Below are positions 23,650-56,257 of a stretch of 64,000 nucleotides of DNA, piece by piece. Source of the DNA: Patescibacteria group bacterium (GTDB lineage Bacteria > Patescibacteriota > UBA1384 > JACPKC01); NCBI GenBank assembly GCA_050944875.1, contig JBMNRW010000001.1:85436-149435 (forward strand), in the 5' to 3' direction. Position numbers and translations under genes: made by a program. The notes below the pieces were generated by a model, which was given only the letters and a program-made list of their open reading frames with translations, had not been told where the DNA came from and made no database searches. Within the stretch, counting starts at the first letter, position 1. The number at the start of each line of letters is the position of its first letter.

Positions 23650-23808
23650 ACACCCTCATTTATGGGCACGTACGAAAAAGGGCCGGGATCTGTCCACCTT
23701 GGGCGGCGATTTCCCGACTCACCCTGCTCGCACTGTTAGGGGTTCGCTGAACTTCTTGGGGCAGTGTACGTGTTTAGAGACACCTTGTCAACGGCTACGT
23801 GCCGGCGG

Positions 23809-23837
23809 TTGACCAGAGTGGCACTACCCGTTACGGT
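23809..23837 (+). promoter_or_regulatory. candidate sigma70-type promoter for dut (TTGACC-N17-TACGGT)
   Basis: -35 TTGACC (23809-23814), 17-nt spacer, -10 TACGGT (23832-23837), ~50 nt upstream of the SD/ATG. Confidence 0.3.
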
Positions 23838-23886
23838 CGCACCGAGCTTTGCCCTTTTCCATTTTCTCGATTGGAGAACACCAATA

Positions 23887-24579
23887 ATGGAGAGTCTTTC
23901 GGTAGCAACGCAATCGACCCCGCGTTCTAACACTCCGCCGTACCCGCCGATCCGCGTCTTTCTCCTGCCAGGCGGCATGTTGCCGCAACGGATGAGCGCC
24001 GGAGCTGCCGGGTTTGATGTCTACGTCCGGGCAGTAGTGTCGGCAACGGGACTCGACGGGGAAGGACGGTTTCGCAGAACGCTCTTCGACTTCGAATCGC
24101 TGCGGGATCCGAACGTGGATCTGTACACGTACTACCGGGTAATTCGGAAACCGGACGGTTCGCTTGCGTATCGGCTCAATGCGGGTGAGCGCGTGACGCT
24201 CGGCATCGGCTTCGCCACGGAGTTTCCCTCCCCTGAGTTCTTCTGGGTGTCGCCGCGCTCCGGCCTGGCGTCGAAGCAAGGGGTTACGATTGGCAACGCG
24301 CCTGGGACGATTGACGCCGACTATCGGGGCGAAGCATGCGTCGTCCTTATTAACGGCAATGTACCGTCGCCACACGCTAACCTACCCTACGTCCGCAGTC
24401 GTGGTACCCGGATTGATTTCGCATTCGACATCACGCGAGGGATGCGGGTTGCGCAAGCGCTCTTTGGACGAGCTGGCGTTCCTGAGCTCCAGCTCGTTGA
24501 GCACTACGATGCGCTCACAGCAAGTGAACGTGGTTCCGGCGGCCTGGGTTCGACCGGACTCATTGATCATTGCGAGTAG
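23887..24579 (+). CDS. dut: divergent dUTP diphosphatase (all five dUTPase motifs, with insertions)
   Basis: Motif I AGFDV, II PRSG, III GTIDADYRGE, IV RVAQAL, V ERGSGGLGSTG; ~55-aa insertion between motifs I and II and ~12 aa between III and IV; start at ATG 23887 with GGAGAA SD (ORF track starts earlier at 23764). Confidence 0.7.
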   Translation: MESLSVATQSTPRSNTPPYPPIRVFLLPGGMLPQRMSAGAAGFDVYVRAVVSATGLDGEGRFRRTLFDFESLRDPNVDLYTYYRVIRKPDGSLAYRLNAGERVTLGIGFATEFPSPEFFWVSPRSGLASKQGVTIGNAPGTIDADYRGEACVVLINGNVPSPHANLPYVRSRGTRIDFAFDITRGMRVAQALFGRAGVPELQLVEHYDALTASERGSGGLGSTGLIDHCE

Positions 24580-24610
24580 CGACAAGTGAAGGCAGTAAAC
24601 GCAGCAATTT

Positions 24611-24638
24611 GACGGCGCGAAAGCGCCGTCTTCTTTTA
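24611..24638. terminator. terminator shared by convergent dut and TerC-like gene
   Basis: GACGGCGC-GAAA-GCGCCGTC hairpin followed by TTCTTTTAT on plus. Confidence 0.6.
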
Positions 24639-25562
24639 TGTAAGAGCAGGTGTTCGGGCCTGCTCCCGAACCGACCGCCAGAAGAAGTAGCTAATGATAA
24701 GAATCGTGACAATCGGCGAGAACCAGTGTGGTACGTGAACACCGAACGCATCGGCGAGCATGACGCCGCCAAGGACGAGCACGGAGTACATAGCTCCGTT
24801 CTTTAAGTACGCGTACCGCTTAATGCGCTCTACGTTGCCGACCGTAAGCTGGCGTACAACGATTGCGCCAATGCCATTACCAAGGAGGATGAGTGGCACA
24901 GAGAGCGTAAATGCGAATGCGCCCAGTACGCCGTCAATGGAAAACGTCGCGTCGATCGCTTCGAGACACAAGATTTTCGACAGGTCTGACAGATGGCCCG
25001 TTCCCGCTACGAGGTCTGCCTCTGCTCTCTCCGCCTGCGCTTTGAAGCCATGGGTAATGAAGAAGGCAGTGGAGCCGACGACGGCGCCGAATGCGAGGAG
25101 TGGATCCACTCGGAGCGCAAACCAGACAAGCGCAGAGAGGAGGATTGACACGACGGCGTAGAACCAAATACCTGTTCGCTGGAACAGTCGCTCGTGGCGG
25201 AGGCCAAAGTTCTTCTGCTCCAAGAAGAGCCAGTGGAAGAAGAGGAAGACGAGGAACGTCCCGCCGCCGGCGAGGAGGACGGGCGCAGCGGCCTCGATCG
25301 CCTCAATGACGTGCGGGTCGTTTGAGAAGGTCGCAGTTATCGCTTCGATCGGTCCAAGGCCAGGCGTGGCGAGTCAGACGATCAGCCATGGCAAGAGGCC
25401 GCGGATCAAGAAGACCGCAATGAGTATGCCCCAGACAAGAAACCAGCGCCGAGCCTTTTCCTTCATTGTAGAGAGTACTTCGGCGTTGATGATCGCGTTG
25501 TCGATACTCGAGACGGTCTCGAAGAGTCCGAGTACAATGAGTAGAGAGGACCAAATATCCAT
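24636..25562 (-). pseudogene. TerC-family integral membrane protein interrupted by an in-frame TGA (pseudogene, sequencing error or readthrough)
   Basis: N-terminal part (ATG 25560-25562, MDIWSSLLIVLGLFETVSSIDNAIINA) carries TerC motif 1; after TGA at 25374-25376 the same frame continues without ATG/GTG through motif 2 (LEAIDATFSIDGVLGAFAFT) to the stop at 24636. The ORF track's upstream extension (MAWKRSLVRIQYGPP) is the translated tRNA-Ala. Confidence 0.65.
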
Positions 25563-25589
25563 GGCGCAAGCGTAACGCGCGCAGTACAA

Positions 25590-25612
25590 CAAAATAACGC
25601 CGGGCGGCGTTG
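25590..25612 (-). terminator. terminator downstream of tRNA-Ala
   Basis: Minus strand AACGCC-GCCC-GGCGTT followed by ATTTTGTTG. Confidence 0.45.
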
Positions 25613-25628
25613 TTCGGTAGGTATGCAG

Positions 25629-25704
25629 TGGTGGACCGTACTGGATTCGAACCAGCGACCTCTTCCATGCCATGGAAGCGCTCTACCAACTGAGCTAACG
25701 GCCC
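25629..25704 (-). tRNA. tRNA-Ala (anticodon GGC)
   Basis: GGGCCGTTAGCTCAGTTGGTAGAGCGCTTCCATGGCATGGAAGAGGTCGCTGGTTCGAATCCAGTACGGTCCACCA: cloverleaf with G3:U70, A73, anticodon loop AU-GGC-AU, encoded CCA. Confidence 0.9.
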
Positions 25705-25762
25705 AAGTGCGCGTGACGTCGGTATTCTACCCTGGAGGTCGACGGAGAGCAAGACTGCGGGT

Positions 25763-26266
25763 ATGCTTGACCTTGTGACTATAGCGCTTATTCTCCACAT
25801 TATCGGTGCGGTACTCGGCGTAGGCGGCGCAACATACAACGACCTCCTGCTGGTGCGTGCAATCGGCGACCGTGAGCTTGGGCCGGCGTACCAGAAGAAC
25901 GCCGCAGCATTCTCACTTGTCATCTGGACGGCGATCGCGCTCCTCGTCGCGACGGGACTATTCTTCGTCGTCAATGACACCTCGCTGCTGGCGAACCAAA
26001 AGTTCCTGACAAAGCTCAGCCTCGTCGTGCTTCTCGTCGTGAACGGCGGACTCATGAATTCGCTGTTTCAGCCGCCACTCGAGCGACTTCGCGCCATCGA
26101 CTGGGCCGAACGAACACCCGCGCTCTGCCGACTCGTCCGAGGCGCACTCCCCTTCGCGAGCATCTCCATTGTGACGTGGTACACCGTGCTGATTTTCGGA
26201 GCGCAGGCACGCAGCCGTGGACGACAGCACAGATTCTTCCTTGGTACGTCGGCGCTATCGTGGTAA
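25763..26266 (+). CDS. hypothetical integral membrane protein (4 TM)
   Basis: 167-aa ORF with four hydrophobic helices; no recognisable family. Confidence 0.5.
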   Translation: MLDLVTIALILHIIGAVLGVGGATYNDLLLVRAIGDRELGPAYQKNAAAFSLVIWTAIALLVATGLFFVVNDTSLLANQKFLTKLSLVVLLVVNGGLMNSLFQPPLERLRAIDWAERTPALCRLVRGALPFASISIVTWYTVLIFGAQARSRGRQHRFFLGTSALSW

Positions 26267-26400
26267 ACTACCTCGTCGCGCTCTTCGTACTCGAACAGCG
26301 CCTCGGCGCGGTCCGCTAGCGATCGCGCTCTTGCTTCATACCTGTTCTCCAGGTACGTTTTCTATACTCTTTTCAAACCCGAATGCCGGAGGATAGCTGT

Positions 26401-26994
26401 ATGCAACGCGGACACGCAATCCGACCCCTCGAGCGCGCTGAGGACAGTCAGGAACCCTGGGTGTTCCTCGCGGGCCCGATTCAGGGCGCGGCCGACTGGC
26501 AGGCCCAGGCGATCGAGCTCCTGCACGCAATTGACCCAGTGCTCAACATCGCGAACCCGCGCTCAGCTGAACCATTTCACGGGAACTGGCGCGCGCAGGT
26601 GCACTGGGAATCATACTACCTTCGACTCGCCGCTTTGACCGGCTGTATACTCTTCTGGGGCGCGGAAGAGCAGAAACACACCTGCAATCGTGCGTACGCA
26701 CAGACGACGAGATTCGAACTCGGTGAGTGGTTCGCCCTTCATCAGTTCCTCCACTGCCAAGTCGTGATTGGTTGCCACACAAGATTTACCGGTATGCGTT
26801 ATCTGTGTGAGCGGTACTTCTTCACACCAACCGAATCGGTTCGCGTCCACCATAACCTCGAGGCCGTCTGCACTGAGGCTGCCGCCCGGGCGCGAATGCA
26901 CACTGAGCGCGGCACACGTCGGGAAAGCGCATTTAAGGACTCGCCGCTCAATCTCAATTACTACAGGCAATTTCTCGAAAACTTGCTTTCGTAA
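26401..26994 (+). CDS. nucleoside 2-deoxyribosyltransferase / DNPH1 (Rcl)-like protein
   Basis: WVFLAGPIQGAADW resembles the N-terminal YF(A/C)G(P/S) nucleotide-binding motif and TTRFELGEW the catalytic xELG motif of the NDT/DNPH1 fold; start at the second ATG (GGAGGA SD). Confidence 0.45.
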   Translation: MQRGHAIRPLERAEDSQEPWVFLAGPIQGAADWQAQAIELLHAIDPVLNIANPRSAEPFHGNWRAQVHWESYYLRLAALTGCILFWGAEEQKHTCNRAYAQTTRFELGEWFALHQFLHCQVVIGCHTRFTGMRYLCERYFFTPTESVRVHHNLEAVCTEAAARARMHTERGTRRESAFKDSPLNLNYYRQFLENLLS

Positions 26995-27001
26995 AACAAA
27001 T

Positions 27002-27033
27002 AAAAGAGCGGACCCCATTCGGGATCCGCTCTT
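27002..27033. terminator. strong rho-independent terminator after rpsJ (minus) and the NDT-like gene (plus)
   Basis: AAGAGCGGACCCCATTCGGGATCCGCTCTT hairpin; on minus followed by TTTATTTGTTTT. Confidence 0.7.
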
Positions 27034-27051
27034 CTTCTGTACCAAGCCGAG

Positions 27052-30865: not shown

Positions 30866-30894
30866 ACTGTACCAGGAGAAGTAGATAGGGTCAA
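30866..30894 (-). promoter_or_regulatory. candidate sigma70-type promoter for fusA-tuf-rpsJ (TTGACC-N17-TACAGT)
   Basis: Minus strand TTGACCCTATCTACTTCTCCTGGTACAGT, ~55 nt upstream of the fusA ATG and downstream of a GC hairpin following the CYTH gene. Confidence 0.35.
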
Positions 30895-30942
30895 CGGAAC
30901 GAGAAAGGGCCGCCCAGTAATAGGTCGGCCCCGTGAAGCAAT

Positions 30943-31515
30943 CTAGAACATCTCGAACTCGCTCGGAGGACGAGCAACCGCCCAGCGAACCGCCCGACCG
31001 ATCTGCTGCTTCGTGAATAAATTCTGGCTACTGCGGAGAAACACTTGCGCAGCCTCACCAGAGAGCTTTCCGAGATGGACATTCTGGTACTCTCGATTGT
31101 CGGTCACTTCGATCGCACCTTGTGCCCAGGCCGGTAGTACATACACCTCTGCGTCCTCTGTCGTCGGGAATTCCCGTTCCATCAGCACAAGGCCGTCGAG
31201 CTCACCGGCAAAGACATCAATCTCTTCACCCGTCTCCGTAACTCGGCGCGACTTCATGATTGCATCAGTCGAGATTCCCCAGAGCTCCTCAAAGAGCCAC
31301 TCTGGAATCTTGACCTCCCACTCGTTGCGCGCCCGAAGTCCTGCGCCTTTTGCTATGAGGGTGAACTGCTCACCGTCGCGACGAGTGGCAGTCCGACGAA
31401 CGCGCAGCACCACGCCTGGGTGCTCCGCGACGTAGGCTTGGAAGATCGCAGTCTGTGAGTGAACCGGCGCGTCGCTCGGTAAGTGCGGCAGAAGCCACTT
31501 GCGCTCAATTTCCAT
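30943..31515 (-). CDS. CYTH-domain protein (triphosphate tunnel metalloenzyme; class IV adenylyl cyclase / triphosphatase-like)
   Basis: N-terminal MEIERKWLL (ExExK CYTH signature) plus downstream acidic residues; ATG at 31513-31515 preceded by AGGAGG; inserted between rpsG and fusA. Confidence 0.65.
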   Translation of the reverse strand: MEIERKWLLPHLPSDAPVHSQTAIFQAYVAEHPGVVLRVRRTATRRDGEQFTLIAKGAGLRARNEWEVKIPEWLFEELWGISTDAIMKSRRVTETGEEIDVFAGELDGLVLMEREFPTTEDAEVYVLPAWAQGAIEVTDNREYQNVHLGKLSGEAAQVFLRSSQNLFTKQQIGRAVRWAVARPPSEFEMF

Positions 31516-31586
31516 CACTGCCTCCTGATTGGATAGGATCGTTCCCTGAAGGACTTGCTTCAAGGTGCTGCATTACTACAAAATAG

Positions 31587-31618
31587 AAAGGAGCGCCGAA
31601 GCGCTCCTTTCTTTTTTG
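31587..31618. terminator. strong bidirectional terminator after rpsG
   Basis: AAAGGAGCGC-CGAA-GCGCTCCTTT perfect hairpin followed by CTTTTTTGTG; the mirror-image A-tract on minus closes the rpsL-rpsG transcript. Confidence 0.75.
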
Positions 31619-31632
31619 TGTGCTGGTTGTCG

Positions 31633-32106
31633 TTAGAGCCGGGCGTAGTGGGCGAAGGCCTTGTTCGCCTCGGCCATCCGGTGCATGGCATCGCGCTGGG
31701 CGATTGCCGAACCCTGGTTCTCGAACGCGAGCTGGATCTCACTGGCGAGCTTGTCCTGCATCGGCTTCCCCTTGCCTTTGCGGGCCGCGTCGATGATCCA
31801 CCGCATCGCGAGCGCGAGCTTGCGGGTTGGCCGGACTTCCATCGGCACCTGGTACGTTGCACCGCCGACACGCTTCGAGCGGACTTCGACGAGCGGTGAC
31901 ACGTTCTTGAGCGCCGTCTCAAAGATCTCTAGCGCCGGCTTCTCGAGCGCCGACTCCGCGCTATCGAGCGCATTGTAGACGATCTCGCGGGCCGTGAGCT
32001 TCTGGCCGTCGAGCATCACCTTGTTGATGAACTGCGCAACGACGACGGAGTTGTACTTGTAGTCCGGGGTAATCTCCCGGCGGGTAGTGGTTCGCTTGCC
32101 TCGCAT
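31633..32106 (-). CDS. rpsG: 30S ribosomal protein S7
   Basis: S7 family. Confidence 0.95.
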   Translation of the reverse strand: MRGKRTTTRREITPDYKYNSVVVAQFINKVMLDGQKLTAREIVYNALDSAESALEKPALEIFETALKNVSPLVEVRSKRVGGATYQVPMEVRPTRKLALAMRWIIDAARKGKGKPMQDKLASEIQLAFENQGSAIAQRDAMHRMAEANKAFAHYARL

Positions 32107-55725: not shown

Positions 55726-55799
55726 TGGCTCCGGGACTAGGATTCGAACCTAGATTCACGGCTTCAAAGGCCGCTGTCCTGCCATTAGACGATCCCGGA
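55726..55799 (-). tRNA. tRNA-Gln (anticodon UUG)
   Basis: TCCGGGATCGTCTAATGGCAGGACAGCGGCCTTTGAAGCCGTGAATCTAGGTTCGAATCCTAGTCCCGGAGCCA: U1:A72, G73, anticodon loop CU-UUG-AA, encoded CCA. Confidence 0.9.
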
Positions 55800-55840
55800 T
55801 CACCGCGGCAATGGTACCAAAAACCCCGAAGGATCGGGGT

Positions 55841-56180
55841 ATCTGGTGCGAACGTACTCATAAGCCGGGTTCTGTCTTCGCATGAAGCGAAGGGTGGTAT
55901 CTCTCTCAGCGTCCGGACCCAGGGACGTCCCCCGAGCAGGGGTTGACGACGAGTGGGTCCACCGGACTTGCACGACGTAAGTGTTTTGCACTGCGACACC
56001 TTCCAGTGCCGCACTGTGAGCTCTTACCTCACCGCTTTTCACCCTTGCCCGCACTCTTTCGAGCCGCTGGCGGTATGGTCTCTGCGCCACTCTCTCTGGC
56101 CTCACGGCCGCCCAGCTTGCACTGGGTACGCTGCTCTACCGTGCCCGGACTTTCCTCTCGTTGTTACACGAGCACCAACC
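55841..56180 (-). ncRNA. rnpB: RNase P RNA, bacterial type A
   Basis: Minus strand carries CGAGAGGAAAGTCCGGGC (P4 5' strand), GGGCAAGGGTGAAAAGCGGTGAGGTAAGAGCTCAC (P10-12 region; cf. E. coli GGGCAAGGGUGAAAGGGUGCGGUAAGAGCGCAC) and GACAGAACCCGGCTTAT (P4 3' strand), followed by hairpin CCCCGATCCTTCGGGG+TTTTT. Only spurious ORFs occupy this span. Confidence 0.85.
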
Positions 56181-56257
56181 ACGGTGCGTTCGCGACAATA
56201 TCCTACTGATTTCCGCCAGGAGCGTCAATCAGTGCTCACTGTATCTGTGCTGTTACC

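Follow-up and report, generated by a model that had tools for sequence, protein, structure and literature searches.

Does a CYTH-family gene that lies between the genes for ribosomal protein S7 (rpsG) and elongation factor G (EF-G; fusA) point to a link between its enzyme and translation? The question is raised by a 64,000-nucleotide (nt) stretch of DNA from a Patescibacteria group bacterium (assembly GCA_050944875.1, contig JBMNRW010000001.1, positions 85,436 to 149,435), the whole of which we call the window and whose coordinates are used below. A first-pass annotation had described a CYTH gene inserted inside the str operon and had taken its place as a hint of a link to translation or nucleotide signaling. 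Read literally, this placement would suggest that translation in a minimal-genome bacterium of the candidate phyla radiation (CPR) receives an unknown input from nucleotides or polyphosphate. We favor, with a probability of roughly 0.72, the reading that the gene encodes a CYTH triphosphatase of the NeuTTM/CthTTM type and was inserted in a permissive spacer between a terminator and a promoter, without a functional tie to S7 or EF-G.

Identity and subtype of the CYTH protein

The gene was found where it had been described. An open reading frame (ORF) of 190 amino acids (aa) beginning MEIERKWLL lies between the S7 and EF-G genes, on the minus strand like all elements of the locus. The mechanically called ORF starts at a TTG at 31563 (206 aa; stop codon 30945-30943). 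The ATG at 31515 is the supported start, because an AGGAGG Shine-Dalgarno (SD) sequence stands 5 nt upstream and because the homologues begin at the equivalent MEIERK; 24/24 aligned homologues begin MEIERK or, in one case, MSVEIERK. The claim that the gene has its own AGGAGG ribosome-binding site was therefore borne out.

31515-30943, minus strand: coding sequence of a CYTH/triphosphate tunnel metalloenzyme (TTM) protein of the NeuTTM type, 190 aa; residues 1-150 are the catalytic domain and residues 151-190 a lineage-specific helical tail
31521-31526, minus strand: SD sequence AGGAGG, read from the sequence, 5 nt before the ATG

An antisense ORF of 140 aa (31013-31435, plus strand) lies entirely within this homology-supported coding sequence. 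Nothing marks it as a gene, and it probably arises as a side effect of GC-rich coding sequence.

Membership in the CYTH family rests on matches in the Protein Data Bank (PDB), on profile evidence, and on fold. A phmmer search of the PDB matched NE1496, the NeuTTM protein (2fbl, 3typ), at E = 1.9e-12 over residues 2-148, and a family profile of the window protein and 24 homologues matched NE1496 at E = 1.5e-47; it was the sole significant PDB sequence match. An AlphaFold2 model on the family alignment had eight beta strands, with a mean predicted local distance difference test score (pLDDT) of 86.7 and a predicted template modeling (TM) score of 0.80. In a Foldseek comparison of this model with the PDB, the top four matches were all NE1496 (E 2e-11; TM-score 0.69-0.71 by target length), the next were SaTTM, AtTTM3, and HpAC1, and all top matches were TTMs. 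The first-pass annotation had staked its CYTH call on an eight-stranded tunnel in a structure prediction and on the metal-binding acidic residues after alignment; the predicted structure has the former, and the latter are all present.

The columns invariant in the 25 aligned sequences were E2, I3, E4, R5, K6, Q26, Y28, R38, R40, K56, E65, E98, D100, E113, and E115, and these residues were present when checked directly in the window protein sequence. The ExExK motif follows the initial Met as E2-I-E4-R-K6 (invariant in 25/25). Candidates for metal binding are the acidic residues E2, E4, E65/E67, E98/D100, and E113/E115, the last pair being the ExE of strand beta8, while the basic residues K6, R38/R40, K56, and K88/R90 are placed to hold the triphosphate. 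Y28 and K56, both invariant in the family alignment, align with the proposed Tyr-28/Lys-52 catalytic dyad of NeuTTM. We conclude that ORF 31515-30943 is a genuine, intact CYTH/TTM gene whose product has, as judged from alignment and model, the fold and the complete residue set of a two-metal triphosphatase.

The first-pass annotation had offered triphosphate hydrolysis or class IV adenylyl cyclase (AC-IV) activity for such an enzyme. The residue set and fold are of the triphosphatase type; the cyclase half of the proposal did not hold. A CyaB-like enzyme making a cyclic AMP (cAMP) signal would suit the superfamily and the label 'adenylate cyclase' that sources give to several homologues, and the known AC-IV enzymes (Aeromonas hydrophila AC2, Yersinia pestis AC-IV) have the CYTH superfamily and the ExExK motif in common with the window protein. 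However, AC-IV enzymes need HFxxxxExExK, a small residue for the first Arg of RxR, and Ala for the second Glu of the beta8 ExE (Vogt et al. 2021, PMC8233210), and the window protein fails 3/3 of these discriminators: its ExExK begins at residue 2, with N and Q as the upstream in-frame residues in place of HF, and both R38 and E115 are kept. The closest characterized relative, NeuTTM, is without significant cyclase activity (PMC3440374), and the best AC-IV-like structure (2aca) ranks 16th in the Foldseek list (E 4e-3). We give a cyclase almost no chance of being the right description. Thiamine triphosphatase was also ruled out. That enzyme needs WxRxR, in which the Trp stacks on the thiazolium ring (PMC8233210), and the window protein reads V36-L-R38-V-R40, with V in the Trp position.

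By its PDB sequence, profile, and fold matches the protein appears closest to the class of NeuTTM and CthTTM, which are grouped in cluster 2 of a sequence similarity network (SSN; PMC8233210). Both enzymes have high inorganic triphosphatase activity and no significant cyclase activity, and CthTTM is less specific than NeuTTM, hydrolyzing nucleoside triphosphates (NTPs) too (PMC3440374). NeuTTM (NE1496 of Nitrosomonas europaea; PDB 2FBL/3TYP), a specific inorganic triphosphatase, was the best match in both sequence and fold. It resembles the window protein in its single domain, its similar core size, and the conserved ExExK, RxR, K, ExE, KxR, ExD, and ExE, but the identity is only ~28-29%, and NeuTTM lacks both the 5 extra residues (TATRR) that follow R40 in the window protein and the 40-aa tail at its C-terminus. 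The likeness to CthTTM (Clostridium thermocellum), a tripolyphosphatase/NTPase, is by literature class (cluster 2), with no CthTTM chain among the PDB matches. SaTTM (Sulfolobus acidocaldarius, PDB 7NS8-7NSF) and AtTTM3 (5A67) have the TTM fold in common with the window protein (Foldseek E 5e-5 to 1e-4) but are longer proteins of SSN clusters 3 and 9, with 14-17% identity to it, and SaTTM has a C-terminal plug helix. Their alignments span 175-180 columns versus ~160 for NeuTTM, and from this span the tail of the window protein may occupy a place similar to their C-terminal part.

Apart from a 99%-identical copy (P0001), no protein exceeded 48% identity, either in an exhaustive HMMER search of 1.84 billion representatives or among 5.8 billion clusters. 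The closest named homologue cluster was from Solirubrobacteraceae (42% identity), which we rejected as a gene donor because it is too distant, and many homologues from contig scans were clostridial. The best non-self match (P0145, 568 aa, from JGI/ENA metagenomes; 48% identity over residues 1-148 of the window protein) carries its CYTH part as a C-terminal domain fused to a PPDK_N (pyruvate phosphate dikinase AMP/ATP-binding) domain. Several other top matches are also multidomain (346-568 aa), and one 6510-aa protein (P0205) had 14 matched stretches. No PADLOC defense-system model matched the window protein at E<=0.1.

Gene order in relatives and the gap between rpsG and fusA

The only other copy of the gene (P0001) lies on a 2.9-kb Logan contig, L081, in the same rpsL-rpsG-CYTH-fusA order. 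We compared the str regions of nine relatives, graded by EF-G identity from 79% to 92%, for what lies between rpsG and fusA.

L082 and L083, EF-G 92%: 152-nt spacer, no gene
L085 (Candidatus Berkelbacteria GCA_016198415.1), EF-G 84%: 47 nt
L168, EF-G 84%: unrelated 215-aa gene
L084, EF-G 83%: unrelated 216-aa gene
L087, EF-G 83%: unrelated 235-aa gene
L169, EF-G 81%: 108 nt
L170, EF-G 80%: 29 nt
L086, EF-G 79%: 25 nt

None of the nine (0/9) had a CYTH gene at this junction. The first-pass annotation had suggested asking whether the insertion is conserved across the lineage, and it is not, being present only in the window and in L081. Genome and metagenome contig scans yielded 160 loci encoding CYTH homologues, all at <=40% identity, and among these loci none but L081 had S7, S12, or S10 together with EF-G beside the CYTH gene; at one locus an EF-G paralogue (38% identical) was encoded on the opposite strand. 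These scans found neither an orthologue in another genome nor a donor, and literature searches on CYTH with Patescibacteria, or on CYTH with rpsG and fusA, turned up no such arrangement. As far as these sequences show, a single species-level lineage of a Berkelbacteria-like CPR bacterium has the S7/CYTH/EF-G linkage to itself. The gene neighborhood therefore does not speak for a functional tie to translation, and the hint that had been drawn from the S7/EF-G position is left without comparative backing.

The elements that surround the gene are as follows.

36334-32573, minus strand: rpoC
32526-32116, minus strand: rpsL
31633-32106, minus strand: rpsG (ribosomal protein S7), upstream neighbor, 157-aa ORF
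31578-31619, minus strand: intrinsic-terminator hairpin after rpsG, with an A-tract, a 12-bp GC-rich stem, a UUCG loop, and a U-tract
31555-31579, minus strand: 5' arm of an imperfect inverted repeat, 25 nt, 72% complementary to the 3' arm
30917-30941, minus strand: 3' arm of the inverted repeat, 25 nt, overlapping the 5' half of the downstream hairpin
30906-30932, minus strand: weak GC hairpin, then UUUCUCGUU (fold and repeat search)
30866-30894, minus strand: fusA promoter-like site TTGACC-17-TACAGT with an extended TG before the -10 element (promoter scan)
30809-28692, minus strand: fusA (EF-G), downstream neighbor
28606-27422, minus strand: tuf
27387-27052, minus strand: rpsJ

The flanking genes and their order match those of the canonical str operon (rpsL-rpsG-fusA-tuf). 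The difference is that this sub-clade has a terminator hairpin and a promoter splitting rpsG from fusA even without an inserted gene, and in the window the CYTH gene occupies that split. The S7 assignment agrees with matches to PF00177 (Ribosomal_S7) in the near-identical 157-aa product at the same position in L081 and in the 94%-identical products of L082 and L083. The closest named relatives of the window EF-G were from Candidatus Berkelbacteria (84% and 79% identity), which places the organism in the CPR/Patescibacteria.

A terminator scan of the region after rpsG found the 12-bp stem (31585-31612) on both strands, and the arms of the terminator reach 31578-31619 with 95% complementarity. 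Its folding energy was -28.6 kcal/mol (z = -7.2), and 0/200 shuffles were as good. The terminator looks bidirectional, in agreement with the strong bidirectional terminator that had been described upstream of the CYTH gene. The GC hairpin downstream (30932-30906) was marginal at -18.6 kcal/mol (z = -2.3; 6/200 shuffles as good) and is possibly a weak terminator of the inserted gene. It is followed by the promoter-like site (30894-30866), one of four such sites found in a 4.2-kb region versus 0.6 expected from shuffles. A GC hairpin and a TTGACC-N17-TACAGT promoter ahead of fusA had both been noted before, and both are there, the hairpin being weak.

At the empty site of L082 and L083, the rpsG stop codon is followed by a hairpin, AAAGAAAACAGCGC-CAA-GCGCTGTTTTCTTT, then by 19-21 nt, TTGACC-17-TAAAGT, and the fusA leader. 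The hairpin is homologous to the window terminator, with two compensatory pair changes (GG/CC to AC/GT). The TTGACC-17-TACAGT of the window aligns with the TTGACC-17-TAAAGT of the empty site, and the promoter and leader there (CAACGGCTCT...GTAG...) align with the region upstream of fusA in the window. A hairpin and a TATAAT-type promoter are also present in the 108-nt gap of L169. Because both elements exist at the empty site of the nearest relatives, the rpsG terminator and the fusA promoter are, on this alignment, older than the insertion, and the CYTH gene therefore sits in a gap between two transcription units. The earlier picture of a gene inserted inside one str operon, which brought a terminator and a fusA promoter as features of the insertion, has to be given up.

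The inserted segment runs from ~31571 to ~30901 (~0.67 kb) and holds a leader with the SD sequence, the ORF, and the weak hairpin, and nothing else. The two inverted-repeat arms that bracket it have the consensus GTARTANNNNNGCNCCNTGAAGCAA and match at 18/25 positions, a level reached by 0/2000 shuffles of the two flanks. Just outside both arms is a 13-nt direct repeat, GGCG..CCTTTCT (11/13 matches; 31597-31585 and 30914-30902), one copy being the 3' arm of the terminator after rpsG and the other the 3' stem end of the downstream hairpin plus TTTCT. In the alignment to the empty site, 'CNTTGA' occurs at both junctions, and the left arm lines up with native spacer over its outer part. Beyond the two defining copies, neither the arms nor the direct repeat recurred in the 64-kb window. 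The bracketing repeats and CNTTGA could be marks of an insertion mechanism. Pairing of the arms at the RNA level was rejected, as the minimum free energy fold of a 690-nt segment leaves the arms unpaired and is no better than shuffles (z -1.0). L081 differs within the arms at two positions, both of which retain G-U pairing and so are uninformative.

Accessory genes in the ribosomal cluster

The genes found at the rpsG/fusA junction in three of the relatives (L084:3346-3996, L087:3189-3896, and L168:737-1384) encode an orphan protein of 215-235 aa. The three proteins are 52-74% identical to each other, with conserved ends MPERFSGG at the N-terminus and ITPLLELTEIDDVEG at the C-terminus. The orphan had no Pfam or PADLOC match, and these three were its only members among 5.8 billion protein clusters. 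It was rejected as a diverged CYTH protein (BLASTP E 0.31). The orphan gene is packed 2-18 nt from rpsG and fusA, tightly like a true operon member, which the CYTH gene is not.

Further along the same cluster in the window, the rpsJ-rplC junction is interrupted by ~3.4 kb (23650-27051) of mixed strands that hold four unrelated genes and a tRNA gene.

26383-26994, plus strand: Nuc_deoxyri_tr2-like (nucleoside-deoxyribosyltransferase-like) gene
25763-26266, plus strand: membrane protein, 167 aa
25629-25704, minus strand: tRNA-Ala(GGC)
24636-25223, minus strand: DUF475/TerC-family protein
23764-24579, plus strand: dUTPase-like protein, 271 aa

The genes after rpsJ differ among the relatives. Judging from these comparisons, spacers of the str/S10 supercluster have repeatedly taken in accessory genes in this clade, and a positional accident is therefore the economical reading for the CYTH gene.

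Other observations were made in the same regions. The rpoC gene of L085 (L085:1-3025) was called as two adjacent genes 30 nt apart, of 500 aa (Rpb1 domains 1-2) and 745 aa (domains 3-5); either the beta' subunit is truly split, or the break stems from a frameshift or an error of assembly. A giant ORF of 1996 aa with a weak Peptidase_C39_2 match (L084:7910-10115) lies 134 nt downstream of rpsJ on the same strand. Elsewhere in the window, region 55726-56192 holds a bacterial class A RNase P RNA (55845-56192, minus strand; 160 bits), 45 nt upstream of a tRNA-Gln(TTG) on the same strand.

Explanations for the position of the gene

Under insertion in a permissive spacer, the enzyme would hydrolyze the terminal phosphoanhydride of inorganic triphosphate (PPPi) to pyrophosphate (PPi) and phosphate (Pi), perhaps act on NTPs too, and make no cAMP. 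Comparison with the relatives shows that the gene arrived as a ~0.67-kb single-gene segment (5' leader with the SD sequence, ORF, and weak hairpin), which a single species-level lineage received between its rpsG terminator and its fusA promoter. Its position would reflect a permissive spacer between transcription units rather than a tie to S7 or EF-G. Without a good sigma-70-type promoter of its own, the gene would rely on a weak promoter or on polymerase reading through the rpsG terminator, and transcripts passing the weak downstream hairpin would run into fusA.

Several findings weigh against this reading or parts of it. No promoter-like site between the terminator and the ATG passed the scan, and the best candidate by eye, TTGAAG-17-GATCCT, had 7/12 matches, so that transcription of the CYTH gene would need this weak site or passage of polymerase through a strong terminator. 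In the comparison of the window with L081, the CYTH gene had 2 nonsynonymous (V39I, I54T) and 0 synonymous substitutions, while the flanking rpsL, rpsG, and fusA together had 2 nonsynonymous and 15 synonymous (Fisher one-sided p = 0.035, on tiny counts). This contrast fits weaker constraint on the CYTH gene than on its essential neighbors, with counts too small to call decay. The nearest empty site is only 92% identical in EF-G, which makes the junctions and the age of the insertion approximate. Residues 151-190 were covered by no homologue, either among 2115 significant representatives or in the family alignment, and were modeled by AlphaFold2 as one long helix with pLDDT falling from 83 to 52. 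Because a plug helix at the C-terminus reportedly affects which substrate a TTM prefers, the tail could change specificity and qualifies any statement about it. Substrate specificity within TTMs is in any case not reliably readable from sequence, and NeuTTM-like and CthTTM-like behavior are not told apart. Lastly, neither Pfam CYTH (PF01928) nor any other Pfam or NCBIfam model matched the window protein at E<=1. PF01928 appears to cover this CYTH branch poorly, with the nearest homologues straddling its gathering cut-off (16.7-25.1 bits versus 23.2), and we set the miss aside because the branch sits at the Pfam threshold even for the nearest homologues and because CYTH membership rests on other evidence.

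Three other accounts of the locus deserve weighing. The absence of an upstream promoter-like site, the strong terminator directly upstream, the substitution contrast, and a 40-aa tail that has no homologue and may derive from loss of the original stop codon, in a protein that Pfam models do not reach, would all suit a silent or decaying passenger that is barely expressed in a transcriptional dead zone and drifting. This is unlikely, as the ORF is intact in two independent samples, the ~15 catalytic or binding residues are all kept at 35-48% identity to any relative, the SD sequence is canonical and ideally spaced, and the AlphaFold2 core model is confident. At third codon positions the GC content is 0.65 for the gene, lower than for the translation genes beside it (0.77-0.86) and the same as for the other non-ribosomal genes of the window (0.64-0.70). 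This led us to reject a foreign origin by base composition and points to long residence rather than a fresh foreign fragment. Alternatively, a small non-autonomous cassette, either mobile or spread by recombination, may carry the gene; it would have inverted repeats at its ends, duplicate its target, and home to spacers between a terminator and a promoter. This idea is compatible with the triphosphatase function proposed above. The bracketing inverted repeat, the direct repeat just outside it, and the shared CNTTGA speak for such a cassette. Yet there is no transposase or integrase, no other copy of the arms in 64 kb, the alignment of the left arm's outer part with native spacer means that the arms may be partly pre-existing, the repeats do not abut directly (5 nt and 2 nt apart), and their lengths were chosen after the data had been seen. 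We consider the cassette rather improbable.

The position would be functional if the CYTH enzyme acted on a translation-linked triphosphate (GTP, (p)ppGpp, or 5'-triphosphate RNA) or were co-regulated with EF-G, with read-through of the S7 terminator tying its dose to ribosomal-protein synthesis. S7, CYTH, and EF-G do lie on one strand, the SD sequence is strong, and read-through dependence is possible for a gene without a recognizable promoter of its own. The barrier between it and fusA is no more than a weak hairpin, the basic C-terminal tail, unique to this protein, could serve as a module for interactions, and a sister subclade has another, unrelated gene packed tightly into this junction. 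Against this stand the unconserved linkage (an empty spacer in the nearest relatives and no other str-cluster locus among the 160 CYTH loci), the pre-existing promoter that fusA keeps for itself, the strong terminator between rpsG and the CYTH gene, the preference of characterized enzymes of the subfamily for inorganic PPPi, and constraint that appears weaker than on the neighbors. We regard a functional position as very unlikely. A combined idea is more speculative and, in our estimate, slightly less probable again. It supposes an undescribed kind of promoter-less single-gene cassette that inserts in terminator-promoter spacers of ribosomal clusters of CPR bacteria, is expressed by read-through, and would couple hydrolysis of a triphosphate (PPPi, GTP, or (p)ppGpp) to the expression of ribosomal proteins and EF-G, with the sister-subclade orphan as a second cargo.

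Insertion in a permissive spacer remains the reading that we prefer, and the CYTH gene has the look of an everyday accessory gene that stands in an unusual place, not of a new link to translation. Little of the idea of an input into translation survives the comparison with relatives, given an arrangement that is private to one lineage and lies in a pre-existing gap. What the locus holds is a very divergent triphosphatase of the NeuTTM type, with <=48% identity among billions of proteins, missed by Pfam and NCBIfam, and carrying a unique tail. It is also a clear example of how the str/S10 supercluster of a Berkelbacteria-like clade, split by terminators and promoters, has repeatedly gained accessory genes, and it calls for caution when function is deduced from gene neighborhood in ribosomal clusters. 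For the family, it adds one more case to the question of the cellular role of PPPi-specific CYTH enzymes.

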